41,044 nucleotides of DNA from the UHGV virus genome UHGV-0106252. One strand, written 5' to 3'. Below the pieces are notes generated by a model. The model saw only the letters and a program-made list of their open reading frames with translations. It did not search any database and was not told the DNA's origin. Shown here piece after piece: positions 18,175 through 41,039 of the stretch. Position numbers and translations under genes: made by a program. The stretch comes from a virus. Position 1 is the stretch's first letter. Each line of letters starts with the position of its first letter.

Positions 18175-18669
18175 ATGAATATGGCAGCACCAAAGGGCAA
18201 CCGATTTTGGGAGGCCCGCAGTAGTCATGGGCGAAATCCTAAATTCGAATCGCCTGAGGCGCTGTGGGCTGCTTGTTGTGAATACTTCGAGTGGGTGGAA
18301 GCTAACCCGCTATGGGAGATGAAGGCGTTCTCGTATCAGGGTGAAGTAATACAAGAGCCTATCGCCAAGATGCGAGCGATGACCATTACCGGCCTCACTC
18401 TGTTCATTGATGTGACGCTTGAAACATGGCGCACATATCGCCTGCGAGAAGATTTATCTGAAGTCGTTACGCGAGCAGAACAGGTCATCTACGACCAGAA
18501 ATTCTCTGGCGCAGCCGCTGACCTTCTCAACGCTAACATCATCGCCCGTGATTTGGGCCTCAAAGAGCAGTCGCAAGTTGAAGACGTGACACCTGATAAG
18601 GGAGATCGCGATAAGCGGCGCTCTCGTATCAAGGAGCTATTCAACCGTGGAACTGGACGCGATTCTTGA
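18175..18669 (+). CDS. Terminase small subunit (P22 gp3 type)
   Basis: [47 protein letters not shown]... is close to P22 gp3. Contains the pac site. Confidence 0.9.
18448..18475 (+). promoter_or_regulatory. pac site (headful packaging initiation)
   Basis: GAAGATTTATCTGAAGTCGTTACGCGAG matches the P22 pac sequence as I recall it, inside the small terminase gene. Confidence 0.7.
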
Positions 18670-20146
18670 TAACCTGAGCGACGAAGAGCAAATCGAGTTG
18701 CTCGAGCTACTCGAAGAAGAAGAGAACTACCGGAACACACACCTGCTATATGAATTTACGCCATACAGCAAGCAGCGTGAGTTCATCGACGCCGGGCATG
18801 ACTATCCAGAGCGATGTTTTATGGCTGGTAACCAGCTTGGTAAGTCATTTACTGGTGCTGCTGAAGTCGCGTTTCACCTTACCGGTCGTTATCCGGGCAC
18901 AAAAGGCTATCCTGCTGATGGTAAATATGGCGGTGAGTGGAAAGGTAAGCGTTTCTATGAGCCTGTTGTCTTCTGGATTGGTGGAGAGACAAACGAGACT
19001 GTAACCAAAACGACTCAACGCATCCTGTGCGGTCGTATCGAAGAGAATGGTGAGCCAGGCTACGGTTCCATACCGAAAGAGGACATCATTAGCTGGAAGA
19101 AGTCTCCTTTCTTTCCGAACCTTGTTGATCATCTTCTGGTTAAGCATCACACGGCTGATGGCGTTGAAGATGGTATTTCAATCTGCTACTTCAAACCATA
19201 CTCGCAAGGCCGTGCTCGCTGGCAGGGTGACACAATCCACGGTGTGTGGTTTGACGAAGAACCACCATACAGCATTTATGGCGAAGGGCTTACCCGTACC
19301 AACAAATACGGGCAATTCTCAATTCTGACGTTTACCCCGCTGATGGGGATGTCTGACGTTGTTACCAAGTTCCTGAAGAATCCCAGCAAGTCGCAGAAAG
19401 TGGTCAACATGACCATCTATGACGCTGAGCACTACACCGACGAGCAGAAAGAGCAAATCATCGCATCCTATCCTGAGCATGAGAGAGAGGCGCGTGCTCG
19501 CGGTATTCCTACGATGGGTAGCGGGCGAATCTTCCAGATACCGGAAGAGACGATTAAGTGTCAGCCGTTCGAGTGCCCTGATCACTTTTACGTAATTGGC
19601 GGTATGGATTTCGGATGGGATCACCCGCAGGCGCAGGTTCAGCTTTGGTGGGATAAGGACGCAGACACAATCTACGTTTCACGCGTGTGGAAGGCGAAAG
19701 AAAAAACAGCCGTTCAGGCGTGGGGAGCCGTTAAATCTTGGGCGCATAAAGTGCCAACCGCATGGCCTCATGACGGAAACCAGCACGAGAAGGGCGGCGG
19801 TGAGCAGCTTAAAGGGCAGTACGCGGACGCTGGTTTTATGATGTTGCAGGAGCATGCGACATGGCCTGATGGCGGTAATGCTGTTGAGCCTGGCATCACT
19901 GAATTGCGCGACATGATGCTCGATGGACGCTTCAAAGTATTCAACACCTGTGAGCCATTCTTTGAGGAGTTCCGCCTCTATCACCGTGATGAAAACGGGA
20001 AGATCGTCAAGCTTAACGATGACGTTCTCTCAGCCGTTCGCTATGCATACATGATGCGCCGCTTCGCAAAAATGATGCGCGACATCAAAAAACCAAAAGA
20101 GAAAAAGATACCAGCCCCAATCAGGCCCATCGCACGGAGAACTTAA
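18647..20146 (+). CDS. Terminase large subunit (P22 gp2 type)
   Basis: 499 aa, ATPase and nuclease domains; GTG start overlapping the small-subunit 3' end. Confidence 0.9.
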
Positions 20147-22312
20147 ATGGCCGACGAAAACAGACTCAATTCCATTCTGTGTAAGTTTGACGCAGACTGG
20201 ATGGCGAGCGATGAAGCCAGAACCGAGGCGACAAATGACCTGTATTTTAGCCGAGTGTCGCAATGGGATGACTGGCTATCAAACTACACGACCCTGCAAT
20301 ATCGCGGACAATTCGATGTTGTTCGCCCGGTGGTCAGGAAACTGGTCGCAGAGATGCGCCGGAACCCTATCGACGTTCTCTTCCGACCAAAAGACGGTGC
20401 TAATCCTGATGCAGCCGATGTGTTGATGGGGATGTATCGTACTGATATGCGCCATAACACGGCAAAAATTGCCGTTAACGTTGGCGTTCGTGAGCAGATA
20501 GAGTCAGGCGTTGGTGCATGGCGTCTGGTCACGCAGTACGAAGACAACGATCCAACAAGCAACAATCAGGTAATCCGACGCCTGCCAATCCATGAAGCCT
20601 GCTCACACGTCATATGGGACGCCAACAGCAAGCAGATGGATAAGAGCGACGCTAAGCACTGCACGGTGATTAACGCTTTGTCACGCAATGGCTGGAAAGA
20701 GTTCGCAGAGGATTACGGCATTGATCCTGACACGCTGCCATCTTTCCAGAATCCGAACGATACATGGCTGTTTCCGTGGGTATCGAATGATGTCGTCTAC
20801 GTCGCTGAGTATTACGAGGTAGAAGAGAAGAAGGAGAAAGTCTTCATCTACCGCGACCCGCTGACAGGTGAGCCGGTCAGCTATTTCCAGCAGGATATCA
20901 AAGACGTCATCGACGACCTGGCTAATCGTGGATTCATTAAGGTAGCAGAGCGTAAGGTCAAGCGTCGGCGTGTGTATAAGTCGATCATCACCTGCACGCA
21001 GATACTGAAAGACCGCGAGAAGATAGCTGGAGAGCATATCCCAATCGTTCCTGTGTACGGCGAATGGTCATTCGCTGGTGACAAGGAGTGCTACGAGGGC
21101 GTGGTAAGGCTGACGAAAGACGGTCAACGCCTTCGTAACATGATCATGTCGTTCAACGCCGATATTGTTGCTCGTACACCGAAGAAGAAACCGACCTTCT
21201 TCCCTGAGCAAATCGAAGGCTACGAATACATGTACGGTGGAAATGATGACTATCCGTACTATCTGCAGAACAGGACCGATGAAAACGGTAACGACCTGCC
21301 GATTGGTCCAATCTCCTACATGGAAAACCCTGAAGTGCCGCAAGCCAACGCTTACATGCTTGAGGCTGCCACCAACGCAGTGAAAGAAGTGGCTAGTCTT
21401 GGCGTGGATGCGCAGGCGGCAAATGGTCAGGTCGCTTTCGATACCGTCAATCAACTGAACATGCGGGCAGACCTTGAGACATACGTGTTTCAGGATAACC
21501 TGGCTACCGCAATGCGACGTGATGGCGAGATTTATGCCTCAATGGTCAACGATATTTATGACGTTCCTCGTCATGTAACGCTGACACTTGAAGATGGAAG
21601 CGAGAAAGACGTTCAACTCTACGCGCAAGTTGTAGATTACCAGTCCGGTAATGTGGTCACACTCAACGACATTCGCGGTCGCTATGAGTGCTATACAGAC
21701 GTTGGGCCATCCTTCCAGAGCATGAAGGAACAGAACCGCGCAGAGATTCAGGAATTGCTCACTAAGGTTCCGCAAGGTACTCCAGAGTTCCAGATGCTGA
21801 TGCTGCAATACTTCACGCTGCTTGACGGTAAAGGCGTCGAGATGATGCGAGAGTACGCTAACAAGCAACTGGTGATGATGGGGCTGAAGAAACCAGAAAC
21901 ACCTGAAGAGATGGAGATGGTACAGCAGGCTCAACAGCAGCCGCAGCAGCCATCAGCAGAGCAAATTCAGGCGCAGGGTATCCTTCTGCAAGGTCAGGCT
22001 GAATTGCTCAAGGCAGAGAACCAACAGGCGCAGATTCAGGTTGAGGCCGCCAAGGTTGAAGCCCAAAACCAACTCAACGCCGCGAAGATTGCGGAAATCT
22101 TCAACAATATGGACCTCGACAAGCAGGCAGAACTGCGTGAGTACCTCAAGCTCGTAGGTCAATTCCAGCAACAGCGCAGCAAAGATGCTCGTGCTAACGC
22201 TGAGCTGCTTCTTAAAGATGCAGACCAGACTCATTCACAACGCATGGATTTCGCGAATCTTATGCGTCAAGTTCAAATCCCCTCCGGCGGAGTAGCCGAG
22301 ACACCTCAATAA
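20147..22312 (+). CDS. Portal protein (P22 gp1 type)
   Basis: 721 aa, strong resemblance to P22 portal including the Gln-rich C-terminal barrel region. Confidence 0.95.
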
Positions 22313-22325
22313 GAGAGAGTTAACC

Positions 22326-23237
22326 ATGGACCAAACCACCGACATTCAGGCTTCTGAAGAATTAACCCTGCCCGGAAATCATGCAGCGGCATCTGCTGAT
22401 GGCTTAGTTGTCGATAATGCCAACGACATCGCAGGTCAGGAAGAAGGCTTCGAGATTGTCCTGAAAGACGATGAGAAACCAAAACAAGACCCGGCAACTA
22501 ATGCTGAATTTGCCCGTCGCCGCATCGAACGCAAACGCCAGCGTGAGCTTGAGCAGCAGATGGAAGCGGTTAAGCGTGGAGAGTTGCCGGAGCACCTGCG
22601 GGTGAACCCTGAGTTACCAAAACAACCAGACCCTAACGATTATCTTTCCGAAGATGCGCTGGCTAAGTACGACTATGACCAGAGCCGCGCACTGGCTGCC
22701 TTCCAGCAGGCAAACAGTGAATGGCAGATCAAGGCTATGGACGCACGAAGCCAGGCTGTCGCCGAGCAGGGTCGCAAAACTCAGGAGTTCACCCAGCAAT
22801 CAGCGCAATACGTCGAGGCAGCCCGTAAGCACTACGACGCAGCGGAAAAGCTCAATATCCCTGACTATCAGGAGAAAGAGGATGCATTCATGCAACTGGT
22901 GCCGCCAGCAGTCGGTGCCGACATCATGCTCCTCTTCCCGGAGAAATCCGCCGCTCTCATGTATCACCTTGGTGCTAATCCTGAGAAAACACGCCAGTTG
23001 CTGGCGATGGACGGGCAATCCGCGCTGATTGAACTCACTCGACTGTCAGAACGTTTAACTCTCAAGCCTCGAGCCAAACCTGTTTCAGAAGCCCCGCTAC
23101 CTGATGAACCCATTCAGGGACACGCTGTTGCTGCAAATATATCTGCGATTGAAAAGCAGATGGAAGCGGCAGCAAACAAAGGGGATGTAGAGACGTACCG
23201 CAAGCTCAAGGCGCAACTGAATAAAGGAATTCGATAA
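22326..23237 (+). CDS. Scaffolding protein (P22 gp8 type)
   Basis: 303 aa, close to P22 gp8. Confidence 0.9.
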
Positions 23238-24532
23238 TGGCATTAAATGAAGGTCAACTGGTCACGTATGCTCTGGATGAAATCATCGAAACCGTCCAGA
23301 ACCTGACGCCAATGGCGTCCAAAGTGACAAAATACACCCCTCCGGCAGAATCCATGCAACGTTCAAGCAACACCGTGTGGATGCCTGTTGAGCAGGAAGC
23401 GCCAACTCAGACTGGCTGGGATTTAACTGGCAACGCTACTGGGATTCTGGAACTCTCCGTGAAATGCAACATGGGTGATCCGGATAACGATTTCTTCGAG
23501 CTTCGTGCAGATGACCTGCGTGATGAGCGTTCTTACCGTCGCCGCATCCAGGCATCTGCCAAAAAACTGGCGAATAACATTGAGTCAGCGATTGCCAAAC
23601 AGGCAACTGAAATGGGCTCACTTGTTGTTCACGATACCCGCGCAATTGGTCCATCTACTGGCCTGTCTGGCTGGGATTTTGTGTCTGATGCAGAGCGCCT
23701 GATGTTCTCCCGCGAACTCAACCGCGACATGGGCATCAGTTACTTCCTGAACCCTGACGATTACCGCAAAGCAGGCCGCAACCTGGTAGATGGTGACATC
23801 TTTGGGCGCGTTCCTGAAGAAGCTTATCGCAACGGTACTATTCAGCGTCAGATTGCTGGCTTTGATGAAATTCTTCGCTCACCGAAACTTCCTGCAGTTA
23901 CCAAGTCAACCGCTACTGGTGTAACTGTTTCTGGTGCGCAGAAGTTTAAGCCGCAGGCATACACCCTTGATACTGATGGTAACAAAGAGAACGTCGACAA
24001 CCGTGTTGCAACGGTGACCGTATCCTCCACCACCGGATTTAAGCGCGGCGACAAAATCAGCTTCACTGGTGTGAAATTCCTATCTCAGATGGCGAAGAAC
24101 GTGCTGACTGATGATGCGACTTTCTCAATCACCCGTGTGATCGATGGTACTCACATCGAAATCACGCCGAAACCGATTGCACTGGATGACGCGTCACTGA
24201 CAAAAGAAGAGAAGGCTTACGCTAATGTAAACACATCTCTTGCTGATACCACTCCGGTAAACGTTCTGAACGTGGCAACAACCACCGCTAACGTGTTCTG
24301 GGCTGATGACTCAATCCGCCTACTGTCTCAGCCGATCCCGGTAACCCATGAACTGTTTGCGGGCATGAAAACTTCTTCCTTCAGCATTCCTGGCATTGGT
24401 GTTAACGGCATCTTCGCAACGCAGGGTGATATCAACACTCTGTCTGGTAAGTGCCGTATTGCTGTGTGGTATTCAGCATGTGCTGTACGACCAGAGGCAA
24501 TTGGTGTTGGTCTGCCTAACCAGACTGCGTGA
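23237..24532 (+). CDS. Major capsid (coat) protein (P22 gp5 type)
   Basis: 431 aa, MALNEGQ... close to P22 coat protein. Confidence 0.95.
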
Positions 24533-24540
24533 TAACCAGA

Positions 24541-24564
24541 GGGAGCTTCGGCTCCCTTTTTTAT
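24541..24564 (+). terminator. Rho-independent terminator after the coat gene
   Basis: GGGAGC-TTCG-GCTCCC hairpin followed by T6. Confidence 0.75.
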
Positions 24565-24576
24565 CTGGAGACAAGC

Positions 24577-24826
<250 letters not shown>

Positions 24827-24849
<23 letters not shown>

Positions 24850-25327
24850 TTTAGTCCTTGCAGCATTACGTAAGCTCGGTGTGGCATCAAATGCCACGTT
24901 AACCGATGTCGAACCGCAGTCTATGGAAGACGGCGTCAACGACCTTGAAATGATGATGGCTGAATGGCTTGGCGGTGATGTGTCACCTGGTATCAGCGTT
25001 GGCTACATTTTCGCTGATGCAGATGTCGCTCCAGATCCGGGCGATGAGCACGGTTTATCAAATAACGCTATCAATGCTGTTATTTTCAACCTTGCCTGCC
25101 GCATTGCACCGGATTATGCGCTGGAAGCGCCTGCAAAACTTATAACCACTGCCAGATACGGGAAAGAGCGACTCGTCAAACTGTCTGCAATGGACAGAGC
25201 AAAAGCCGCTAAATGTAAGTCCGGTTATCCAAACCGTATGCCTGTTGGTAGTGGTAACCAGTTGGCGAAGTGGAACGGTTGGAATTACTTCCACCGGAAG
25301 GAACCTTGCGATAACGGGAGCGAATAA
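24827..25327 (+). CDS. Head-completion / tail-adaptor protein (P22 gp4 type)
   Basis: [33 protein letters not shown]... parallels P22 gp4 (166 aa). The ORF-track start at 24716 is a repeat-driven extension. Confidence 0.85.
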
Positions 25328-26746
25328 ATGCCGATTCAGCAACTTCCGCTTATGAAAGGTGTCGGCAAAGACTTTCGAAACGCCGACTATATCGACTATC
25401 TGCCAGTGAATATGCTGGCTACACCCAAAGAAATCCTGAACAGCAGCGGATATCTTCGCTCATTCCCGGGCATTGCCAAACGTTCTGATGTGAACGGTGT
25501 ATCGCGCGGAGTCGAGTACAACATGGCGCAGAATGCTGTTTATCGCGTTTGCGGTGGCAAGTTGTATAAGGGTGAAAGCGAAGTCGGTGACGTCGCCGGA
25601 AGTGGTCGTGTATCAATGGCGCATGGTAGGACATCACAGGCGGTAGGCGTTAATGGTCAACTGGTCGAATACCGCTATGATGGCACGGTTAAAACCGTCT
25701 CAAACTGGCCTACTGACAGCGGATTCACACAGTACGAGTTAGGTTCAGTTCGCGACATTACGCGCTTACGTGGGCGTTATGCGTGGTCAAAAGACGGTAC
25801 TGATTCATGGTTTATCACTGACCTTGAAGACGAATCGCACCCTGACCGATACAGCGCACAATATCGCGCAGAATCGCAGCCGGACGGTATCATCGGCATC
25901 GGAACATGGCGAGACTTCATCGTCTGCTTTGGTTCATCGACGATTGAATATTTCTCCCTGACTGGCGCAACCACCGTTGGTGCTGCTTTGTATGTCGCAC
26001 AGCCATCGCTGATGGTGCAGAAAGGCATTGCCGGAACCTACTGCAAAACGCAGTTTGCTGATTCGTATGCGTTCATCAGCAATCCGGCAACAGGTGCGCC
26101 GTCTGTGTATATCATCGGCTCCGGGCAGGTGTCACCAATCGCCAGCGCGAGCATTGAGAAAATCCTCCGCTCCTACACTGCTGATGAACTGGCTGATGGC
26201 GTGATGGAATCGTTGCGCTTTGATGCTCATGAGCTGCTGATTATCCATCTTCCGCGCCATGTTCTGGTGTACGACGCATCTTCAAGCGCCAATGCTCCGC
26301 AATGGTGTGTACTGAAAACAGGCCTGTATGACGATGTGTACCGCGCCATTGACTTCATTTACGAAGGCAATCAGATAACGTGCGGCGATAAGCTGGAGTC
26401 CGTGACCGGGAAATTGCAGTTCGATATCAGCAGCCAGTATGGGCTACAGCAAGAACACCTGCTGTTTACTCCACTCTTCAAAGCAGATAACGCCAGATGC
26501 TTTGATCTGGAGGTGGAATCATCGACGGGTGTTGCTCAGTACGCCGACCGCCTGTTCCTCTCGGCAACCACTGATGGCATCAATTACTGTCGTGAGCAGA
26601 TGATTGAGCAGAATGAACCGTTCGTTTACGACAAACGCGTTTTGTGGAAGCGAGTAGGGCGCATCAGGAAAAATGTTGGCTTCAAATTGCGCGTTATCAC
26701 TAAGTCACCTGTCACTCTGTCTGGCTGCCAGATAAGGATTGAGTAA
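25328..26746 (+). CDS. Tail hub / head-completion protein (P22 gp10 type)
   Basis: 472 aa, same length and position as P22 gp10. Confidence 0.85.
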
Positions 26747-27699
26747 TGGCGGATTCGAATCTCAATGTGCCGGTAATCATCCAAGCTACGCGGCTCGATA
26801 CATCAGTTCTTCCACGCAATATCTTCTCGCAGTCGTATCTGCTTTACGTTATCGCACAGGGCACTGATGTTGGTAACGTGGCTAACAAGGCCAACGAAGC
26901 AGGGAAGGGGGCTTATGATGCACAGGTGAAGAATGATGAGCAGGATGTCACCCTTGCAGACCATGAATCCAGAATTGAAGCTGCTGAAGCAACTCTCGTC
27001 AATCATGAACATAGAATTGCAGCAGCGGAAAGCACTCTTGCAGATCATGAAACAAGGATTACGGCTGCTGAAACAGAGCTGGCTGATCACGAGACGCGAA
27101 TTGCTGCCAATGAATCTGAGTTAGCAAACCATGATGCGCGCATAACTCAGAATACAACCGATATCGACGCACTTGATACCAGGCTCACAGCGGCAGAAGG
27201 AAGTATTTCGACGCTACAAAGCACAGTTGGTGATCACTCAACAAGAATATCTGCGCTTGAGTATGCCACCACGCGCAAGAAATCAGAGGTTGTTTACTCA
27301 GGAGTATCTGTAACCATCCCGACAGCGCCGACTAACCTTGTTAGCCTGCTGAAAACGCTCACGCCGTCATCCGGAACGTTGGCACCATTCTTCGACACCG
27401 TTAACAACAAGATGGTTGTGTTCAACGAGAACAAAACCTTGTTCTTCAAGCTGTCGATCGTCGGGACGTGGCCCAGCGGAACCGCTAACAGATCAATGCA
27501 GCTAACCTTTTCCGGCTCTGTTCCTGACACACTGGTTAGCAGTCGTAATGCGGCGACAACAACCGACAACATCCTGTTAGCTACGTTCTTCAGCGTGGAT
27601 AAAGACGGATTTCTTGCCACAAATGGCAGCACGTTAACCATTCAGTCAAATGGTGCGGCGTTTACTGCCACAACCATCAAGATAATCGCGGAGCAGTGA
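26746..27699 (+). CDS. Tail needle (P22 gp26 type) with extended C-terminal knob
   Basis: N-terminal plug domain, His-containing heptad coiled coil, then about 100 extra C-terminal residues versus P22 gp26. Confidence 0.75.
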
Positions 27700-28154
27700 T
27701 GATTCAGTTCAAACCAACGCGAAACATCGACCTGATCGAAGCAGTCGGAAATCACCCTGACATTATTGCCGGGAGCAACAACGGTGATGGATACGACTAC
27801 AAACCTGATTGCCGTTACTTTGAGGTGAACGTGCACGGGCAGTTCGGCGGCATTGTTTACTATCAGGAGATTCAGCCGCTTACATTCGATTGCCACGCCA
27901 TGTACCTGCCAGAGATTCGTGGCTTCAGCAAGGAAATCGGGCTGGCGTTCTGGCGATACATTCTGACTAACACCACTGTTCAGTGCGTCACATCGTTCGC
28001 TGCACGCAAATTCCGCCACGGTCAGATGTACTGCGCAATGATTGGCCTTAAGCGTGTAGGAACCATCAAGAAATACTTCAAAGGCGTTGATGACGTGACG
28101 TTTTACAGCGCCACACGCGAAGAACTAATCGACTTCCTGAATCACGGGAGATAG
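27699..28154 (+). CDS. P22 gp14-like protein
   Basis: Position between tail needle and ejection proteins; ATGA overlap with the tail-needle stop. Confidence 0.55.
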   Translation: MIQFKPTRNIDLIEAVGNHPDIIAGSNNGDGYDYKPDCRYFEVNVHGQFGGIVYYQEIQPLTFDCHAMYLPEIRGFSKEIGLAFWRYILTNTTVQCVTSFAARKFRHGQMYCAMIGLKRVGTIKKYFKGVDDVTFYSATREELIDFLNHGR

Positions 28155-28156
28155 CC

Positions 28157-28849
28157 ATGTTATATGCATTTAAGCTGGGCAGAAAACTGCGCGGCGAGGA
28201 ACCTTATTGCCCTGAAAAAGGCGGGAAAGGTGGCAGTTCTGATAAAAGTGCAAAGTATGCCGCAGAAGCTCAGAAGTATGCCGCAGACCTGCAAAATCAA
28301 CAGTGGCAGACGATCATGAAAAACCTTGCTCCGTTCACGCCGCTTGCGGAGCAGTATGTTAACCAGCTTCAGAATCTTTCCAGTTTAGAAGGACAGGGGC
28401 AGGCACTTAATCAGTATTACAACTCTCAGCAGTATAAAGACCTTGCAGGTCAGGCGCGTTACCAGAGTCTTGCTGCTGCGGAGGCGACGGGTGGACTTGG
28501 CTCGACAGCCACAAGCAATCAACTGGCCACGATTGCCCCGACTCTCGGTCAGTCGTGGTTGTCGAACCAGATGAGCAACTACAACAATCTGGCAAACATT
28601 GGCCTTGGTGCTCTGCAAGGTCAGGCAAACGCCGGGCAGACGTACGCCAACAACATGAGCAGCATTGCACAGCAAAGCGCAGCTCTTGCCGCTGCTAATG
28701 CCAATAAACCATCAAGTCTTCAGACTGCAATTAGCGGTGGCACGTCTGGTGCGATTGCAGGTGCAGGTCTTGCCAGCCTTTTGGGAACATCAACACCTTG
28801 GGGCGCTGGCATTGGTGCTGGTATCGGATTGCTTGGCTCGTTGTTTTAA
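28157..28849 (+). CDS. Ejection protein (P22 gp7 type)
   Basis: 230 aa, Gln/Ala-rich with Gly-rich hydrophobic C-terminus; position. Confidence 0.75.
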   Translation: MLYAFKLGRKLRGEEPYCPEKGGKGGSSDKSAKYAAEAQKYAADLQNQQWQTIMKNLAPFTPLAEQYVNQLQNLSSLEGQGQALNQYYNSQQYKDLAGQARYQSLAAAEATGGLGSTATSNQLATIAPTLGQSWLSNQMSNYNNLANIGLGALQGQANAGQTYANNMSSIAQQSAALAAANANKPSSLQTAISGGTSGAIAGAGLASLLGTSTPWGAGIGAGIGLLGSLF

Positions 28850-28858
28850 GGGGTAATC

Positions 28859-30325
28859 ATGGCTACTTGGCAAGGATCAAATGGTGGATTGTTAGCTGGT
28901 ATCGGCGGCGTCAACTCAAACGCTCCGAGCGTAAATGACATCGGCAATACGCTTCAGCTTATCAGGCAGAACAATGATATTGAGCGTTCAGGCGCTAACA
29001 ATGTTGGGCTGACTGCTTTGCAAGGTCTTTCAGGTATTGCAGGGGTGTTTCAGCAGGAAAAGCAGGCTCAGCGGCAGAAAGAATTTCAGCAGGCGTACGC
29101 TAATGCTTATGCGTCTGGTGATCGCGGTGCTTTGCGTCAGTTGGCTACTCAATATCCAGACCAGATTGAATCCGTTCGTAAAGGCATGGGATTCATTGAT
29201 GAAGATCAGCGTAATTCTATCGGCACCTTAGCGGCTGGCGCACGCCTTGCGTCATCGTCTCCAGAAGCAATGCAATCATGGCTGCAAAACAACGCCAATG
29301 AGCTGGCGCGCGTCGGTGTTGACCCTAATAACGTTGCTCAGATGTATCAGCAGAATCCTTCAGGATTTGGTGAGTTTGTTGATCACCTTGGAATGGCCGC
29401 GCTTGGTCCGATTGATTACTTCAATGTTCAGGATAAGATGGCTGGTCGTGAAATTGACCGAGGCAGGCTGGCAGAGACAATCCGCAGCAATCAGGCCAGC
29501 GAAGCACTTCAGGCGAGAGGGCAGGATATTAGCCGAGCAAATGCGTTAACGTCAGCATATGCACCAACAGCCGCAATGCAGAATTACAATCAGTACGCGC
29601 AAATGTTAAAGGCGGATCCAGATGGTGCAGCAGCATTTGCGGCAGCGGCGGGAATTAATCCCAATGCTAAGAAATTACTTAAGGTTGAAACCAATCCTGA
29701 TGGCTCGGTAACTAAGTATTACACCGATGGCAGCGAGGAAGCCGGAAAACTAAACCAACCTATATCTGGTGATGGCATTAAACCAATTAGCTTGCCACAA
29801 GCGCAAAGCATCATAGATAAGGCTAATGAGGGTTCCAAGAAGGCGGCAGGATTTGCTTTGCGATTAAAAGATTCAATGGACTCAATGAATCAGCTTAGTA
29901 AAAGCATTGACCCTAAGCGAGTTGCATTAATAAATCGCTCTCTTGGTGATGGGACTATTGCAAATTTAAGCCTATCACCAGCGGAGCAGCAATATATGGT
30001 AAATGCGAGAGACGCCTTGTATGCAATTTTGCGCCCAGAAACAGGTGCAGCAATTACTCTGCCAGAGATGCAGGAGTATTCCAAAATGTACCTGCCTCAG
30101 CCCGGTGATTCCAAGGCTGCTACTGAAACAAAAATGCGAAAAATGCAGGGCCAATATAACTCGTTACGTGGTCAGTCTGGTCGCGTTTATGATGCTTTGG
30201 TGGTTTCAAGTGCTGCAAATAGTCAACAACAGAGCAATAGCCAACAACCGACAAATACCCAACCGCAGCAGAGTCAATCCGGATCATATACCTCAAAATC
30301 AGGCATTCAATTTACGGTGGAATGA
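28859..30325 (+). CDS. Ejection protein (P22 gp20 type)
   Basis: 488 aa, position and composition. Confidence 0.75.
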
Positions 30326-32163
30326 TGAAAGTAACTGCAAACGGTAAGACATTTACCTTTCCTGATGGTACGAGCACCGAAGATATTGGCACCGCCATTG
30401 ATGAGTATTTTGCTGGTCAGGCTGTTCAGCAACAAACAGTTAATCAGGCCAATAATGCACCAACACAGGAAGAACCATCATTGATGCAACAAGCTGGCGA
30501 TTGGCTCACAGGTGGTCAAAGTGCAGGGCAAATTGCAGAGCAGGCTGGTCGTGGTCTGGTAAACATACCATTTGACGTATTGCAGGGTGGCGCAAGTCTG
30601 ATTAATGCAATCAGCCAGGGTCTTGGTGGTCCCAAGGTTTTGGATGATGTTTATCGCCCTGTCGATCGACCGACAGACCCTTATGCGCAAGCTGGAGAAA
30701 CAATTGGCGGGTATTTAGTTCCAGGAGTTGGAACGGCAGGAAGCATGGCTATTGGATCACTGGCAGAAGCCGCAAACCAGAAAGGTGATTTCGCGCAAAA
30801 TGCAGCCATAAATGCCGGAGTTAACCTTGCCGCTCAGGGTGTTCTTTCCGCAGCAGCAAAGGGAATAGGGCGTGGAATAACGGCTATAAAAGGCGATATC
30901 GCGCCAGAAGTAGCGAAAAAAATTGCCACCTCAGAATCAATGGGTGTGACACCAATGACATCTGATGTTATCCCGCCGAAAAATGCTTTCACTCGCGGCC
31001 TTACTCAGGATGCCGAGGGGGCTTTGCTCGGGACAGGCTCAAAGCGAGCGGAGCAATATGCAACGCGTAGTAAGCTGGTAAGCAATTATTTTGACCGTTT
31101 TGGTGAGTACAACCCTGATGATGTGGTGAAATCTCTGACCACCACGTTAAGGGGGCGAAAGGATGCTGCTGGCGCTGTTATCAATGACGTCACCAATAAA
31201 ATGGGTAATGCCGCAGTTGATACCACAAATACCATGAATGCTCTGAATACAGCGATCGCAAGACAGGAACGGCTTGGGACTTCAGCCAATCAAAGCCTGC
31301 TTACATCCTTGCGTAACCTACGTGAAGAATTAGCAAACCCTGCAACTGATTTGGATGTTACGTTTGATCTATTGCGTCAGCACAGAACAGCATTTAGATC
31401 TAATGTTCAGGGAGATGCTATGGTCTTCCCCAACCAGGCAAAAGCAGCTACCAATATGGTAGAGAATGCAATGTCAAAAGACCTTCGTAACGCAGTTGCA
31501 AAAAACCTCGGTGCGTCAGACGCAGCAAAATACCTTAAAGCAAATTCCGATTATGCAAACGTTTATAATAAGGTGCTTAATAAAAACATTGCTAACAAGC
31601 TCAACAAGGCAAACAGTGAAGCCAGTCCTGAACTTATAAATACCGTTGTATTAAGCAGAAAACCATCTGACGTGAAACGAATCTGGAGCGCATTGGATGA
31701 TAAAGGGAAAGATGCTATGCGTGCAGCTTACGTCAGCAAAATAGCGGAAAAGGCCGGTGACTCTCCAGCCAAGTTCATCACGGAAGTTAATAAGCTGAAA
31801 TCTCAGTCAGGCGGTGAAATTTACAACACTATTTTTTCTGGAAAGCACATGAAAGAACTTGATGCTCTTCATGAAGTTCTACAGCAAACAGCAAGATCAG
31901 ACACCGCAAATGTAGTAACTCAGACGGGGCAATCTCAAGCCAACAGGATAAGGACGATTGGCGCAACTGCGACTCTTGGCGTATCAATGGGGCTTGAGGC
32001 TGGTTTCGGTGCAATGATGCGTTTGTATGAGTCCAAAGCAGCAAGGAATGCGCTCTTACGTCTGGCAAACACTAAAGCTGGAACGCCAGCTTATGAAAGA
32101 GCGCTAAATCAGGCTGCTACTGCCGTGCGCCCGCTCTTAGCTAACGAAGCGACCCGGCAGTAG
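30322..32163 (+). CDS. Ejection protein (P22 gp16 type)
   Basis: 613 aa, position and composition. Confidence 0.75.
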
Positions 32164-32185: not shown

Positions 32186-32752
32186 TTATTTTATAGTTTT
32201 TATGAATTCTTTATTAAATCCCTTAGCTTCTCCGGGATATCTTCCAAAGACAATTTTTATAAAAACAGAAAAAATAAAGATAGCAACGCTTAACAACAGT
32301 TGCAGTATCATTGGAACCCAAAGAACTACAGGCTCTATATTCATGAAACCAAATATTCTTCCGGCGATCATGGCGAAGTACCACACTGTTATCAGCAAAC
32401 TTAGTGGCATATGAATTACTGATATTACCAATCCAAGAGCATCAGTAATTCTATTTTCAAATTTTTCAGGGGAAAACTTTTCTTTAAGGTAATTCAGTGC
32501 GCAGGCCTCATTCTCTGGATTTTCAGCATTTTTCCCTATAGCAATAGAAATCTCAGATATCCTTGATTCAATTCTTTTGCGTTTAATAAAACTAGAAAAA
32601 AAGAACCACGCAATCTGCAACCCTATCCCCATAAATAGAGTTGCGGCAACTAGCACAGCGTAACTCATAGAATCAGACACACCAACCTCTTTAGTTTTTC
32701 TAGTTACTTTGTCACGATAGGATATGCGAATTGATAAAACTAAATTGCGCAC
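32186..32752 (-). CDS. Integral membrane protein, SieA-like by position
   Basis: Three predicted TM segments; AT-rich; convergent with gp16 where P22 carries sieA. Start uncertain (GTG at 32752 or ATG at 32668). Confidence 0.5.
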
Positions 32753-32897
32753 ATGATAACTCAGTAATAATTGTTAATGAAAACATGATCACCTATATTG
32801 CACAAGGCGAAACAGGAAGCATAATCTGGTTTCATGAGTGTGATCACGTTTGGGTAAATCAAAGTCAAGAGGAAATACTTGAAATTATCAAAAATAA

Positions 32898-33479
32898 CTA
32901 TCTAAACGTTGCACACGACTCATCTATCCATTTTTCATAAAATTGTATACCGAGATAGGCAAGAACAGATGGATGTATATCAACAAGCTTTTCGCCAAGA
33001 TGTTCTGTTGGAGGTGGATAATCTTTGCCTTGGTTTCTTACGGTTATAGGCATAGTTGTTGCTGGATGAAACTCAACTATCATAGGGTCGCCTTCGTATT
33101 TTGCTATTTTCCCTGTTGAATCAATGATTAACTCTTTAATATAATGGCTTCTTGCTCCCGGAAATGCCCCAAGAGTAGTATAAGGAGGTTCAAGTTTTGA
33201 GATTTCCATAGTGGAATGATGATCAGCATTTCTTGCTTGGTGAAGGTAAGCAAGTGTTTTGTCTGTTTTTCTAAGCATGAACTTTTGGTTGAAGTGGCTG
33301 CTAAATTTTCCACTAACCGGCTTTGTTGCACAGAGCAACTTACTGAAAGACTTTTCTATATGCCCAAGACATTCTCGCCAGTGCATTTCAAAATCATCAT
33401 GGTTTGTAGATGATTTCATCTGCTCTAGGCACTTTTTAGCTGCGATGATTTCTTTTTTTGCTGGGTTGTAATCGATCAT
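32898..33479 (-). CDS. Unknown 193-aa protein co-transcribed with mnt
   Basis: ATG overlaps the mnt stop (ATGA). AT-rich; no motif I recognise. Confidence 0.55.
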   Translation of the reverse strand: MIDYNPAKKEIIAAKKCLEQMKSSTNHDDFEMHWRECLGHIEKSFSKLLCATKPVSGKFSSHFNQKFMLRKTDKTLAYLHQARNADHHSTMEISKLEPPYTTLGAFPGARSHYIKELIIDSTGKIAKYEGDPMIVEFHPATTMPITVRNQGKDYPPPTEHLGEKLVDIHPSVLAYLGIQFYEKWIDESCATFR

Positions 33480-33730
33480 TTTGCATCCTTGCCATACATG
33501 TTTTTAAGTGTCTCAAATACCACAGACTTGAACTGTTCAGCCTGCATCTCGGCTAATCGTTCAGCTTCATTGCGATAACCTTTTACAGGAGATGGTCTCG
33601 ATAGAGCATCTTGGACGATTTGCAACAATTCTGAGTTCATTGATCTACCATTTGACTCTGCTCTGTATTTTAATTTTTCTCTTACTTCCAAAGGCATGCG
33701 GAAGTTAAAGTGCGGATCATCTCTAGCCAT
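33476..33730 (-). CDS. mnt: Mnt repressor (ribbon-helix-helix)
   Basis: MARDDPHFNFRMPLEVREKLKYRAESNGRSMNSELLQIVQDAL... is close to P22 Mnt. Confidence 0.9.
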   Translation of the reverse strand: MARDDPHFNFRMPLEVREKLKYRAESNGRSMNSELLQIVQDALSRPSPVKGYRNEAERLAEMQAEQFKSVVFETLKNMYGKDAK

Positions 33731-33752: not shown

Positions 33753-33805
33753 TTGACATGATAGAAGCACTCTACTATATTCTCAATAGGTCCACCGTGG
33801 ACCTA
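33753..33805. promoter_or_regulatory. immI control region: Pant with Oarc and Omnt operators
   Basis: ATGATAGAAGCACTCTACTAT (33758-33778) matches the P22 arc operator as I recall it; TAGGTCCACCGTGGACCTA (33787-33805) is the palindromic mnt operator; TTGACA at 33753-33758. Confidence 0.85.
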
Positions 33806-33820
33806 TATTGTGAGGTGAAC

Positions 33821-33982
33821 ATGAAAGGAATGAGCAAAATGCCGCAGTTCAATTTGCGGTGGCCTAAAGAAGTATTGGATTTGGTACGCAAGGTGGCGGA
33901 AGAGAATGGTCGGTCTGTTAACTCTGAGATTTATCAGAGAGTAATGGACAGCTTTAAGAAGGAAGGGCGTATTGGCGCGTAA
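33821..33982 (+). CDS. arc: Arc repressor
   Basis: [53 protein letters not shown] is near-identical to P22 Arc (53 aa). Confidence 0.92.
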
Positions 33983-34050
33983 AGTTGAAGCCCCAACTGC
34001 GGGAACAGTCAGGGCTTCTGTTGTCAGTAAATTCGTGGAGAAAAACCAAC

Positions 34051-34953
34051 ATGAATAGTATAGCAATTTTAGAAGCAGTGAACACCTCTTACGTACCTTT
34101 CAATGGTCAGCAGATTATCACCGCCATGACTGCCGGAGTTGCATATGTTGCGATGAAGCCAATCGTTAAAAACCTTGGAATGAGCTGGTCAACGCAGCAA
34201 ACAAAACTCATGAAGCAGATTAGCAAATTCAACTGTGTTCATATGAACATGGTTGCCGCTGATGGTAAGCTTCGTAGGCTACTCTGCCTTCCTTTGAAGA
34301 AGTTAAATGGATGGCTGTTCAGCATCAACCCTGAGAAAGTTCGTGCTGACATCCGCGATAAACTGATTCAGTACCAGGAAGAATGCTTTACTGTGCTGCA
34401 TGACTACTGGACGAAGGGAAAGGCAGAAAATGCACGTAAGAAAACATCTGTTGATGACAGGACTCCGCTTCGTGATGCTGTAAATATGCTAGTCAGCAAA
34501 AAGCATCTAATGTACCCAGAAGCTTATGCAATGATTCATCAGCGTTTCAACGTGGAAAGTATTGAAGAGCTTGATTCATCTCAGATACCGCAAGCAGTAG
34601 AGTACATCCACAGGGTAGTGCTTGAAGGCGAGTTCATCGGCAAACAAGAGAAGAAAACCAACGAGCTTTCTGCAAAAGAAGCAAACAGCCTTGTATGGCT
34701 ATGGGATTATGCCAACCGCTCACAGGCATTATTCCGCGAACTGTATCCGGCATTAAAACAAATTCAATCGAACTATTCCGGCAGATGCTACGACTACGGT
34801 CATGAATTCTCGTATGTTATCGGAATGGCGAGAGACGTTTTAATAAACCACACACGAGATGTTGATATTAATGAGCCAGACGGACCAACGAATCTTTCCG
34901 CATGGATGAGACTTAAGAATAAAGAATTACCTCCTTCAGTACATAACTACTGA
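34051..34953 (+). CDS. ant: Antirepressor Ant
   Basis: 300 aa, [26 protein letters not shown]... close to P22 Ant. Confidence 0.9.
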
Positions 34954-35062: not shown

Positions 35063-35572
35063 TCACCTACCATGATTCTCATGATAACCATAGGTCTTTT
35101 CAGCCTCACGCCTTACAGCAATTGCATCATCGAGACACTTAAAGTATCCGAGATTAATGCGCTTCCCTGCGTCGCTAATATATGCCACCCACTTTTTATG
35201 GGTCTTATGCCATGAAACACCTGCGCACCCAGATGTATTGTTTGTGTATTTAGATTTGTTTTTTAGGTTTTCACCGAGACTAACTAGACGCAGGTTGTCT
35301 ATTGAATTATTTAACCCATTACCATCTTTATGGTCAATTTGCATTCCTGAAGGGATTTCACCATAAAACATTTCCCATATTATCCTATGGGCGGCGTATA
35401 TTTTATCTTGATACCTGATAATTATATAAGATGTTTTCCTGTTCTTGTCCTTGAATATATGTCCTGCAGGCTTTTCTTTAGAGATATTGAACATTTTGGG
35501 TCTTGAAAGATATTGGTCACTCCAGTACAGGAGTCCATCGTCTTTTAATACGAATACTTCGTTCCAGTTCAT
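35063..35572 (-). CDS. HNH homing-type endonuclease with C-terminal AP2 DNA-binding domain
   Basis: HNH motif IDHKDGNGLNNSIDNLRLVSLGENLKNK, then AP2-like SGCAGVSWHKTHKKWVAYISDAGKRINLGYF. AAGGTGG SD before the ATG at 35572. AT-rich. Confidence 0.75.
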   Translation of the reverse strand: MNWNEVFVLKDDGLLYWSDQYLSRPKMFNISKEKPAGHIFKDKNRKTSYIIIRYQDKIYAAHRIIWEMFYGEIPSGMQIDHKDGNGLNNSIDNLRLVSLGENLKNKSKYTNNTSGCAGVSWHKTHKKWVAYISDAGKRINLGYFKCLDDAIAVRREAEKTYGYHENHGR

Positions 35573-35658
35573 GTTAACCACCTTTAAATAAAGTTCACTC
35601 ATTATACAAAAACATGCTAGCAATGAATATTGCTTGCTTAACATATAGAGAAATTAAA

Positions 35659-37665: not shown

Positions 37666-39666
37666 CTAATTAATTACAAAGCCGTTATCATTAAGTATTT
37701 CTTTAACACCAGATTTAGATAAGTGAAAACCAACATTATATAATCCGCCGTTATGGTCAATTATTCTACAACCATTGTCATCACATAAAGTTTTTATAGG
37801 TTTTATCTTATGCAATCCTTTCATGTCAGGAATATATTTATCTAATATATCGGATTGTTGTTTTGCTAAGTTAAGCCCATTTCTGCTGCTTGTGTATGTT
37901 GTCTCAAACTTATAATTGATAGATCTTAGTTTTGAGAATACTATGTTGGCAACATCTTCAGAAGGATTAGGGGTTGGGTATACAATATATACATCATGCC
38001 CCTTGGACACGAGTTTCTTAACATTATTCGATAGAGAGATATATGCCTGCTCGCCACCTAAAAAATCTCCGCCACTAAAATTTTGCTTCGCCATCTCTAA
38101 AGGAGATGACACAGGAGCCTTAGCAAGCGGGAATTGATCATAATTAGCAGCTATAAAAATAGTTTTCTTCCCCTTAAGAGAATCAATGGCTTTCCATCTT
38201 TGCTCATTGACAACCACACATTCAGGAACATTGCCAAACCACATATCACTCACAAATGGACATTGCTCATACGTGAGAGATAACATCCCTTTGTTATTTT
38301 CTTTTGAGTAATCTAAAATTGTTGGTGCATATTGTCCAGCATAGCTATCTCCTAATACGATGATGTCATCACCGCCAAAGCTACACGGGTTATCAAGAGA
38401 ACGTAAACCACATAAATAACTATCAGGTTCACCTCTTAAACTTTTACCAATATTTGAATAATCTGCCAATTTCCTGAACTCTGGTTCTTTGTACATTTCA
38501 TAGGTTTCTTTCAGAATGCCTGCAAGACGCCACTGAAAACCCCCATCGGCCTTTGCATAAATAGAGAAAGCAAGCAATGCTGACAGAGATGTTGCTAATA
38601 CTATTGTATTCTTACTTTTAACATGTTTTGCTCTATATGGTTTTTCAATAAAAAAATATGAAAAAGACGAAATAACAATTGAAATTGATGCTAATACTAC
38701 ACAGTAATAAGGAGTGATATTTTCACTAAATAATATCCTGTAAAAAACAAAAACAGGTTGATGCCATAAATATAGAGAATATGATATCAAGCCAATAAAG
38801 ACAATCGGACGCAAGGATAATATTTTAGATATTAAATCGGCACCATTTGCAAATGCGATTATCAAACATGAACCAGCTACAGGTATTAGGGTGATAAATG
38901 AAGGGTGTTTGATGTTATTTCCAAAAAACAACATTGAATAAACAATCATCAACATTCCAATTACTGGCAGAAACGAAGTTAAAGATGATTGGTCTTTATG
39001 TATATTGCTTCTTCTTTCTTTTACAAAAAAAGACACAATTCCACCAAGAATTAATTCCCATGCCCTTGGTAGTAGCGTATAGAATGCTAAGTCAGGGTAA
39101 CTGCTAACTATAATATTTGCATACACAATAGATGAAACAGAAATCAATATAAGAAGTAATACTCTGTATTTCTTAATAAATTTATTTATAAAAATCAATA
39201 AGAATGGATAAAATACGTAGAATTGCCATTCAACAGCAAGACTCCATGTATGAAGGAGTGGTTTAAATATACTTGCATTTGATACATAGCTATCTTCACC
39301 AAGAAAATAATAATTAGAACCAAAATAAATAGCAGAAATGAGAGATTCAGAGAATTTTACTAAGTCATTTGGTAGAAGAATTTTATAAGCCACTATCGAT
39401 GTAACTACAAGCATAGCAATAAGAGCAGGAACAATTCTCTTTATGCGTCTCCAATAGAAGTCAGTTAGTGAGAAAGAGCGGCTATCAAGTTTATTTATAA
39501 TGATATCTGTAATTAAATATCCTGAAAGAACCAGGAAGACATCAACTCCAAAGAATCCGCCTTTGAATATCTTTACTCCAAACAAAGAAATGCCAGAGTG
39601 ATAAATGATGACAGCCATCACTGCCAAACAACGCAATCCATCAAGCTCTTTCCTATACTTAAGCAT
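37666..39666 (-). CDS. oac: O-antigen acetyltransferase (acyltransferase-3 membrane domain plus SGNH domain; Oac/OafA-like)
   Basis: 666 aa; N-terminal multi-TM acyltransferase-3 domain (RCLAVMAVIIYH...), C-terminal SGNH-like domain. AT-rich. Same position as oac in Sf6. Confidence 0.75.
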   Translation of the reverse strand: MLKYRKELDGLRCLAVMAVIIYHSGISLFGVKIFKGGFFGVDVFLVLSGYLITDIIINKLDSRSFSLTDFYWRRIKRIVPALIAMLVVTSIVAYKILLPNDLVKFSESLISAIYFGSNYYFLGEDSYVSNASIFKPLLHTWSLAVEWQFYVFYPFLLIFINKFIKKYRVLLLILISVSSIVYANIIVSSYPDLAFYTLLPRAWELILGGIVSFFVKERRSNIHKDQSSLTSFLPVIGMLMIVYSMLFFGNNIKHPSFITLIPVAGSCLIIAFANGADLISKILSLRPIVFIGLISYSLYLWHQPVFVFYRILFSENITPYYCVVLASISIVISSFSYFFIEKPYRAKHVKSKNTIVLATSLSALLAFSIYAKADGGFQWRLAGILKETYEMYKEPEFRKLADYSNIGKSLRGEPDSYLCGLRSLDNPCSFGGDDIIVLGDSYAGQYAPTILDYSKENNKGMLSLTYEQCPFVSDMWFGNVPECVVVNEQRWKAIDSLKGKKTIFIAANYDQFPLAKAPVSSPLEMAKQNFSGGDFLGGEQAYISLSNNVKKLVSKGHDVYIVYPTPNPSEDVANIVFSKLRSINYKFETTYTSSRNGLNLAKQQSDILDKYIPDMKGLHKIKPIKTLCDDNGCRIIDHNGGLYNVGFHLSKSGVKEILNDNGFVIN

Positions 39667-39836: not shown

Positions 39837-40994
39837 TTACAGCACACTTTCATCAAGCCAGTCCGCCCACCACTGCATCATTTCTCTGCGCTTATCGAGA
39901 TACTGAGCATGGTTGTAAATACCGCGCACAGATCCTCCGTTGGCATGTGCCAGTTGCACTTCAATAGCGTCAGCAGGCCATTCGTGCTCGTTCATAATCG
40001 TGCTGAATTCATGCCTGAATCCGTGACCGCTTTCCAGACCTTCATAGCCGATTTGTTTGATCACAAGTAGTACCGCGTTCTCGCAGATTGGCTTCTTCTT
40101 ATCGTTGCGTCCGGCAAAAACAAACTCTGATACTGGTTTAGTGATTGAGCTTAGCGTAGTGAGAAGTTCAACCACCTGGTCTGACATAGGAACAACATGA
40201 ATCTTGCGGCCCTTCATCACACTGGCGTCGATAGTGATAATCCTGTTTTCAAAATCGACGTTCTTCCATTGCATGGAACGAAGCTCTTTTGTTCTGAGGG
40301 CTGTGTAGCGTAAAACTTTGGTCGCAATGAGCGATACGATACTTCCTGAAAATGTTGCCAGTGCTTTGTTGAATGCCGGGATCTGGTCTGCAGGAAGAAA
40401 CGGGAAGTTCTTCTTGCGGTATCCCTTCATGGCGTCAGCAAGGTCAGGTGCCGGGTTATATTTAGCCCTTCCGGTGACAATAGCGTAACGGAAAACCTCG
40501 CCGCATCTTCTGCGTGCTTTGTTGGCTCGCTCCATTGCACCGCGATCTTCAAACCTGCGGATTACTTCCAGCAGTTGCATAGGCTCAATATCCTGAATTT
40601 CAAGGCCGCCGATGATAGGTAAAATGTCGTCATCAAACATTTTTGCAAGTTCAGTTGCATAGCCTACTGACCAGACTTGCTTCTTGTGCTCGTACCATTC
40701 CTTGTAAATCGCACTAAAGGAATTGTTGTTAGACGAAGCCTTTTTCGCTTTTACCGGATCGATGCCAACCGAGATGTCTTTCCTCGCAGTCCATGCTTTA
40801 TCCCTTGCCTCCTGCAAAGTCATAAGCGGATATTTTCCTACGGTCAGGATTTTCTCCTTACCGTCAATCTTGTAGCGAAGCTGCCATACCTTTTTCCCTG
40901 ACACAGGGACATAAAGGTACAGGCCATTACCATCGAGTAGGCGGTATGGTTTTTCTTTCGGCTTTGCTGCTTCAATCTGCTTAACGGTGAGCAT
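39837..40994 (-). CDS. int: Tyrosine integrase (P4/IntS family)
   Basis: N-terminal DUF4102-type arm-binding domain; C-terminal catalytic domain with R...HGFRH...Y. ATG at 40994 gives 385 aa; the ORF track extends to a GTG at 41030. Confidence 0.9.
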   Translation of the reverse strand: MLTVKQIEAAKPKEKPYRLLDGNGLYLYVPVSGKKVWQLRYKIDGKEKILTVGKYPLMTLQEARDKAWTARKDISVGIDPVKAKKASSNNNSFSAIYKEWYEHKKQVWSVGYATELAKMFDDDILPIIGGLEIQDIEPMQLLEVIRRFEDRGAMERANKARRRCGEVFRYAIVTGRAKYNPAPDLADAMKGYRKKNFPFLPADQIPAFNKALATFSGSIVSLIATKVLRYTALRTKELRSMQWKNVDFENRIITIDASVMKGRKIHVVPMSDQVVELLTTLSSITKPVSEFVFAGRNDKKKPICENAVLLVIKQIGYEGLESGHGFRHEFSTIMNEHEWPADAIEVQLAHANGGSVRGIYNHAQYLDKRREMMQWWADWLDESVL

Positions 40995-41039
40995 GGGTAA
41001 AAATCCGGTGGGTAAAATTATTTTATCCACTTTTTACCC
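40995..41039. repeat. GGGTAAAA / TTTTACCC motif array upstream of int (candidate Int arm or RDF binding sites)
   Basis: GGGTAAAA at 40995-41002 and 41010-41017; TTTTACCC at 41032-41039; degenerate TTTTATCC at 41021-41028. Continues at 36-55. Confidence 0.5.

Follow-up and report, generated by a model that had tools for sequence, protein, structure and literature searches.

HepS (STM14_3211), encoded by the Salmonella prophage Gifsy-1, is a solo HEPN protein that is made constitutively, is inactive by default, is triggered by a phage tail-tip protein and cuts the anticodon loops of tRNAs (PMC13043305). HEPN domains are defined by an Rx4-6H motif at the end of helix 3, with a polar N, D or H directly after the R; many HEPN families also carry an Ex3[KR] motif in helix 2, providing a second conserved acidic residue, and helices 2 and 3 are frequently separated by an insert (PMC3710099). 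Conservation of the Rx4-6H motif marks the catalytically active RNases, the non-catalytic binding members having lost it (PMC3710099). The type-A SieA protein of phage P22 is an inner-membrane protein with three transmembrane segments and a FxRYPxEAxxFNK motif, and it suffices on its own to block the injection of P22 DNA (PMC10883804). Here we analysed orf193, a gene located between sieA and mnt in the virus genome UHGV-0106252, a stretch of 41,044 nucleotides (the window, to which all positions refer unless another locus is named). By analogy with HepS we propose, with a probability of about one half, that orf193 encodes a solo HEPN-like RNase which would be expressed in the lysogen and act as an abortive-infection protein.

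The window is an Escherichia coli P22-like prophage, and its segment 32100-33800 matched 12 complete E. coli chromosomes at 98.6-99.9% identity; DNA-ejection proteins, Arc/Mnt, Ant, tailspike and integrase are encoded nearby. The orf193 gene (32898-33479, minus strand) encodes a protein of 193 amino acids (aa), predicted to be soluble and to form a HEPN-like helical bundle with a beta-rich insert. HepS is an analogue of this protein, as a solo HEPN protein on a prophage with an abortive-infection role of the kind proposed here for Orf193, and not a detectable relative, no homology being detectable between Orf193 and Salmonella HepS (PDB 9OIJ). The HepT/DUF86 HEPN toxins of the HEPN-MNT toxin-antitoxin systems (PDB 7AE2, 5YEP, 8XDJ and 4NQF) differ in having a nucleotidyltransferase antitoxin as partner, which orf193 lacks; they share 6-10% identity and no profile similarity with Orf193, in which the beta insert is an additional difference. 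The "MNT" of HEPN-MNT stands for minimal nucleotidyltransferase and is unrelated to the Mnt repressor of P22. Ymh/TIGR02391 proteins (PF09509) resemble Orf193 in a local motif (AIRNPTAHE in the former, QARNADEHG in the latter) and in their solo occurrences in defence islands, but differ from it in length and architecture, with a profile-profile probability of 0.1%.

The Orf193 family and its predicted fold

The possibility that orf193 is a chance open reading frame (ORF) was excluded by its end-to-end match to a 193-position PHROG profile (PHROG 23516, unknown function; E 7e-120) and by hundreds of full-length homologues. An earlier note on this DNA, made from the sequence alone, had recognised no family for the 193-aa protein, and our searches agreed with it, because Pfam, NCBIfam and PADLOC gave no match (zero families at E<=1 in PADLOC-DB v2). 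Orf193 is a demonstrated member of no named family. A single-sequence search found 7 clusters and a word-indexed profile search 177 proteins, and an exhaustive HMMER search of 1.84 billion representatives recovered 1,772 clusters (50% identity) at E<=1e-3, 1,296 of which were found at E<=1e-10. Nearly all members are single-domain proteins of 190-200 aa. The longer ones showed no confident extra domain in Pfam, the sole match being DUF6941 in P0215, below the gathering score, and 109 relatives of Orf193 had no Pfam match even at E<=10. Another homologue, P0089, bears the precomputed Pfam label PF26900.1. The Pfam copy used does not contain this label and the literature search did not find it, so that part of the family may already be covered by a recent Pfam release.

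Residue conservation was counted over 109 diverse homologues. The conserved positions were W34, D73, L75, L76, Y78, A82, R83, A85, D86, H88, P157, H160 and G162. H88 was invariant (109/109), and R83 and D86 were found in 108 and 107 of the 109 sequences, respectively; position 84, immediately after the arginine, was occupied by N in 97, by H in 9 and by D in 2 of them. The R83-N84-A85-D86-H87-H88 motif (codons at 33216-33233, minus strand) is thus an Rx4H, which we consider a putative catalytic site.

The AlphaFold2 model of Orf193, built with the family alignment, reached a predicted local distance difference test score (pLDDT) of 94.6 and a predicted TM-score (pTM) of 0.86. It contains helices at residues 5-23, 27-58, 61-72, 74-88 and 170-191, and eight short strands within residues 94-154. 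Two of the features of HEPN proteins were found in it. The first is the up-and-down four-helix bundle made of two alpha-hairpins, to which a short extra helix (61-72) is added ahead of the motif helix. The second is the Rx4-6H motif with a polar residue after the R; judged by the order of the secondary-structure elements in the model, the motif would form the last six residues of helix 74-88, at its C-terminal end, and a non-helical stretch comes next. Within helix 27-58, E49 was present in 85/109 and K53 in 56/109 members, forming an Ex3K. The beta-rich insert (residues 94-154, codons at 33018-33200, minus strand) lies between the motif helix and the last helix and is proposed to be a sensor or regulatory module. 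The invariant H160, in a PPTEHLG loop, precedes the last helix.

Coupling of orf193 to mnt and its genomic contexts

The earlier note had placed the 193-aa reading frame at 32898-33479 with its start on the mnt stop codon, and had described the interval as more AT-rich than the flanking structural genes. Both descriptions are borne out by the ORF positions, the junction sequence and the base composition. The mnt gene (33476-33730, minus strand) encodes an 84-aa Arc/MetJ-type repressor of the Pant promoter (Pfam Arc 2.8e-27, Repressor_Mnt 3.4e-11). At the mnt/orf193 junction (GGCAAGGATGCAAAATGATCG), the TGA of mnt and the ATG of orf193 overlap by 4 nucleotides (nt) as ATGA, and an AAGGA Shine-Dalgarno-like element is located 6 nt 5' of the orf193 ATG. 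The G+C fraction was 0.362 over 32186-33479 (0.349 in sieA, 0.387 in orf193 and 0.327 in the 217-bp spacer that separates them); the corresponding values were 0.459 in the window as a whole, 0.472 in the neighbouring gene 16 homologue and 0.504 over the structural genes (18647-30325).

In the nucleotide alignment, homology to P22 is lost in the final third of mnt and starts again at the ribosome-binding site of sieA. Mnt of the window is 79% identical to P22 Mnt and diverges from near residue 60. Upstream of mnt, the Pmnt/Pant promoter-operator region has a single difference from P22 over about 90 aligned nt; the promoter scan located two overlapping, divergent promoters there, at 33753-33786: Pant on the plus strand (TTGACA-17-TATATT) and Pmnt on the minus strand (TTGAGA-17-TATCAT). 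The operators of Mnt and Arc lie here as well, and the P22 record has its promoters and operators annotated in this region. The earlier note had named identity with a known P22 gene as what would refute it. We found instead that orf193 and the spacer take the place of three P22 elements, namely the 59-aa orf59a, the annotated terminator of mnt and PsieA, and a tblastn search of 50,697 deposited phage genomes gave no match to orf193. The P22 gene orf59a shares with orf193 the slot 3' of mnt on the Pmnt transcript; however, it encodes an unrelated protein (PHROG 3202), begins 99 bp after mnt without overlap and is followed by the annotated terminator.

The AT-rich spacer (32681-32897, minus strand) is a constant companion of orf193 and was 98-100% conserved in 18 loci, in some of which sieA is replaced. 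A promoter and terminator scan of its minus (coding) strand found neither a terminator-like hairpin nor a good sigma-70 promoter. The spacer as a known RNA, a terminator or a structured element was rejected, as it had no Rfam match, no terminator pattern and no significant fold (z-score -0.27). The first terminator-like hairpin 3' of mnt, a consensus match only, was found at 32075-32092 (minus strand), beyond sieA and within the 3' end of the gene 16 homologue. We infer that the Pmnt transcript spans mnt and orf193, and it probably reads on into sieA. On the opposite strand, a 69-aa ORF (32731-32940, plus strand; TTG start, with an internal ATG that would give 51 aa) crosses the spacer in antisense orientation and shares 43 nt with the 3' end of orf193. 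This ORF is probably spurious: PHROGs, PADLOC and NCBIfam gave no family for it, it lacks a Shine-Dalgarno sequence, and its only copies are at least 95% identical.

The gene is rare in E. coli, being present in 21 of 5,426 complete genomes, where every copy was at least 99% identical and adjoined an Arc-family gene. The 4-nt overlap with an Arc/Mnt-type gene recurs for four Mnt alleles that are 31-46% identical to the window Mnt, in other E. coli prophages and in Citrobacter. In a Citrobacter koseri lambdoid prophage with siphovirus-type tail genes, a 60%-identical homologue is overlapped by an Arc-type gene and lies beside arc and ant. The E. coli alleles that are 46% and 35% identical to the window Mnt carry the same C-terminal tail (ETLKxMYGKxAK) before orf193. 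Because the 3' end of mnt (33476-33560) diverges from P22 and its tail is common to divergent alleles, a recombination junction seems to lie inside the Mnt tetramerisation region; the recombining unit consists of the last ~13 mnt codons, orf193 and the spacer. On the 3' side of this unit there is sieA in some genomes and, in others, an unrelated 122-aa gene of PHROG 2651, which a YobH-family gene may accompany.

E. coli P22-like prophages have a cargo hotspot between their gene 16 homologue and mnt. In a sister E. coli prophage, sieA and mnt are separated by a Panacea-domain gene, a 139-aa partner gene and a second gene of the Arc family. In other E. coli P22-like prophages the PHROG 2651 gene, alone or with the YobH-family gene, replaces sieA, and one prophage has an ISSen4 insertion (cargo-slot examples: L004, 3956-4823; L003, 3614-3982; L060, 2897-3482; hit H45).

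Distant relatives were found in other surroundings. In 21 IMG/VR viral contigs, the homologues (27-41% identical) were solitary genes, often on the strand opposite to their neighbours. They were located between a moron glycosyltransferase gene and the holin/endolysin genes, between the HNH/terminase region and the lysis genes, directly after an integrase gene, or, in a Pseudomonas prophage, next to tail or lysis genes; on a viral contig of 57 kb, one of them lay between the genes for a DNA helicase and a UmuC-like polymerase. A profile search of genome contigs with a narrow alignment found one Pseudomonas locus. On metagenomic and genomic contigs, homologues occurred among insertion sequence elements and small ORFs, near an integrase gene or, occasionally, in plain chromosomal surroundings. 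One homologue adjoins a Ymh HEPN gene, located directly upstream, and a Phd/PIN pair, and homologues of about 40% identity are carried by two small mobilizable plasmids of Acinetobacter, of 8.8 and 12.8 kb, where they lie between two BrnT/BrnA toxin-antitoxin pairs and next to a Fic-family gene (L062, 2448-3032; L063, 3977-4564). An Arc/Mnt-type gene was present upstream in the immI loci only (a phmmer search with Mnt matched L016 and L009) and in none of the 20+ other loci. The relatives of orf193 thus form a partner-less mobile accessory gene, found alongside conflict systems.

In three unrelated metagenomic loci, a Lys/Arg-rich ORF of 45-59 aa with the motif ALRRxLxTPP is divergent to distant homologues, its start being 10-13 nt from the homologue ATG (L012, 3815-3988; L056, 2811-2990; L015, 3832-4050; all minus strand). 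This ORF may be a small conserved partner or regulator in the subfamily concerned, or else a miscall that recurs.

Function of Orf193 and competing explanations

In the mechanism that we propose, the four-helix bundle would bear its catalytic Rx4H motif, R83...H88, where helix 3 ends, with the beta stretch placed in the connection between helices 3 and 4. Translational coupling to mnt on the Pmnt transcript would give a low constitutive level of Orf193 in the lysogen, and the protein would be inactive until a component of an infecting phage engages it, plausibly at the beta insert. The activated protein would then cleave cellular RNA (tRNA, rRNA or mRNA) and abort the infection in the way HepS does. 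SieA, acting by exclusion at DNA entry, and Orf193 could in this manner provide two layers of protection from one transcript. The features of the 193-aa protein fit a defence effector, and the suggestion in the earlier note that this locus holds exclusion or defence-type cargo agrees with the slot being occupied by interchangeable conflict genes, such as the Panacea pair and the phrog_2651 gene, in other prophages.

Several observations weigh against this proposal. At the acidic position of helix 2, L49 replaces E in the window protein and in its close relatives. No Pfam HEPN family matched Orf193 or the 109 relatives at E<=10, the family profile gave only chance matches when run with hmmsearch against all PDB sequences, and hhalign yielded probabilities of 1.2% with one Ymh gene and 0.1% with a 30-sequence Ymh alignment. 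Foldseek found no significant match in PDB or BFVD; an unnamed viral protein, A0A516KPP1, was a marginal match (E 0.0095). The equivalence of R83 and H88 to the HEPN catalytic residues is drawn from the order of secondary-structure elements in the model. As to expression, the missing terminator comes from a negative pattern scan only, and the transcription pattern is one that we infer. PADLOC has no model for orf193. Taking these points together with the predicted fold and the conserved motif, we call the protein HEPN-like and lean slightly towards a true and catalytically active HEPN domain. The beta-rich stretch and the invariant PPTEHLG loop (P157, H160 and G162) are without known counterpart.

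Some of these observations would also suit an accessory protein with another role, rather than an abortive-infection effector: it might counter host defences, modulate the metabolism of host RNA or nucleotides, or be a HEPN-like protein that binds a ligand without catalysis. The empty defence-database searches are in line with such a role, as are the homologues located in ordinary chromosomal neighbourhoods without a mobile-element signature, the existence of non-catalytic binders among HEPN domains (PMC3710099), the absence of the helix-2 acidic residue from the window protein, and the beta insert, H160, P157 and G162, which are unmatched in known HEPN proteins. However, the Rx4H with N after the R, the mark of active HEPN RNases (PMC3710099), is kept in essentially every member, and most of the readable contexts are prophage moron positions or toxin-antitoxin and defence islands. 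A role of this kind seems unlikely.

The arrangement of mnt and orf193 could also be read as a type II toxin-antitoxin or addiction-like pair, in which Orf193 would be the toxin and Mnt, a ribbon-helix-helix (RHH) protein, would double as antitoxin and autoregulator, stabilising the prophage or immI. The layout is the classic one, in which a larger gene comes after a small RHH gene and overlaps it by 4 nt; the Arc/Mnt-type pairing holds over four divergent Mnt alleles, including that of Citrobacter; the ETLKxMYGKxAK tail is common to all the E. coli partners and travels with orf193; and HEPN domains are frequent toxins of such systems (PMC3710099). Nevertheless, outside the enterobacterial immI subgroup the homologues have no upstream RHH gene or other conserved neighbour, the common tail is more simply accounted for by a recombination junction within mnt, and Mnt already has a defined role as the repressor of Pant. 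Because the distant loci lack an RHH partner, Mnt is probably no dedicated antitoxin, and we regard this pairing as improbable.

We consider equally improbable that the helical bundle is not HEPN and belongs to an unrelated enzyme (another nuclease, a phosphoesterase or a transferase) using R83, D86, H88 and H160, its likeness to HEPN proteins being convergent. The profile and structure searches described above, together with the strictly conserved H160, would be compatible with such an enzyme, and the two alpha-hairpins and the position of the Rx4H motif in the model point to a HEPN domain. Finally, a part for Orf193 in the immI circuit, modulating the activity of Mnt, Arc or Ant or the interplay of sar and ant and so affecting the maintenance of lysogeny, would agree with its location within immI and its coupling to mnt in 21/21 E. 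coli carriers and in the Citrobacter prophage (two loci, of which one is on a metagenome contig), with the full mnt, arc, sar and ant set around it, but is very improbable, as P22 and most P22-like phages operate immI without orf193, the 27-41% identical homologues occur in phages and plasmids without Arc, Mnt or Ant genes nearby, and a conserved enzyme-like R/D/H site would not be expected in such a regulator.

If Orf193 is the solo HEPN-like abortive-infection RNase that we favour, its family would be the second one of solo-HEPN prophage defence proteins after HepS (2026), unrelated to it in sequence, much larger, and with an inserted possible phage sensor. The defence inventories of E. coli, Citrobacter, Pseudomonas, Acinetobacter and many environmental bacteria would then be missing this family, which is absent from the defence databases, and the coupling to mnt would be a simple example of a prophage tying potentially toxic cargo to the circuit that maintains lysogeny. 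A wider and more tentative idea, to which we give clearly less credence, is that these proteins constitute a large unnamed class of solo sensor-effector immunity proteins, new to Pfam, PADLOC and PDB, with a HEPN-type RNase core and a beta-sheet sensor in the loop between helices 3 and 4; in enterobacterial P22-like and lambdoid prophages the class would be coupled to Mnt, and the defence would be made in stable lysogeny only, while the antirepressor is held off.

sieA and other genes of the prophage

The membrane protein gene next to orf193 was first listed as an ORF at 32186-32752 (188 aa, GTG start), of which the PHROG SieA model covers only residues 25-188. Because the alignment with P22 starts ~20 nt 5' of the P22 start codon and the protein matches at full length, the sieA coding sequence was set at 32186-32680 (164 aa, minus strand). 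Its product is identical to P22 SieA, the type-A superinfection-exclusion inner-membrane protein, at 151/164 residues (92%, E 5e-114; PHROG 7745, 1.2e-108), and the nucleotide identity to P22 is ~95% over a stretch that begins in the 3' end of the gene 16 homologue and takes in all of sieA. The hydrophobic blocks, at residues 5-32 and 78-150, fit the published topology of three transmembrane segments, and there is a match to the published cytoplasmic FxRYPxEAxxFNK motif. The earlier note had described a SieA-like protein with three transmembrane segments at the sieA position of P22; its place and hydrophobic pattern stand, and the protein is not merely SieA-like. By its sequence it is the known type-A sieA of P22 in its ancestral position, and nothing new. 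From the identity to the characterised protein, SieA of the window would be expected to block DNA injection by P22-like phages.

The window gene agrees with P22 sieA in identity, length, hydrophobic pattern, motif and position between gene 16 and mnt, but differs from it upstream, where the PsieA promoter region is not conserved and the homology ends ~20 nt 5' of the start. The replacement of the P22 promoter is the only new point for sieA, whose expression in the window may be driven by transcription reading through from Pmnt or by an unrecognised promoter. The earlier note had also taken sieA and orf193 for a single acquired module and their AT-richness for a sign of horizontal acquisition. 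Comparison of the sequences contradicts the first of these claims, since the orf193 unit joins either sieA or unrelated genes and the two genes have separate histories and recombine independently. The second is weak evidence of a recent acquisition of sieA, because the sieA region of P22 itself, with ~95% nucleotide identity, also has a low G+C content.

A complete immI set (mnt, arc, sar and ant) is present around orf193. The arc gene (33821-33982, plus strand, 53 aa) was delimited according to the RefSeq annotation of an identical locus, the ORF translation containing Arc. The sar antisense RNA was located at 33983-34050 (minus strand; Rfam RF00262, 91 bits against a gathering score of 43, E 3e-19). 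The antirepressor gene ant, with the Pfam domains P22_AR_N and P22_AR_C, occupies 34051-34953 (plus strand), its start having been set by analogy with the ant gene of P22 (903 nt).

Two further genes were observed elsewhere in the prophage. A gene for an endonuclease with HNH and AP2 domains (35063-35644, minus strand; Pfam HNH_3 1.6e-20, PHROG 99) is located between ant and the tailspike gene, and its 5' end overlaps the longest tailspike ORF (start at 35614). It is missing at the same position in strain MB53 (L002) and present in Combat2C1 (L011), as expected of a mobile homing-endonuclease insertion. A gene at 37666-39666 (minus strand), lying between those for the tailspike and the integrase (the latter at 39837-41030), encodes a 666-aa fusion of an AT3 acyltransferase and an SGNH domain; this architecture is that of the O-antigen-acetylating lysogenic-conversion genes, and the gene is probably further cargo expressed by the lysogen.

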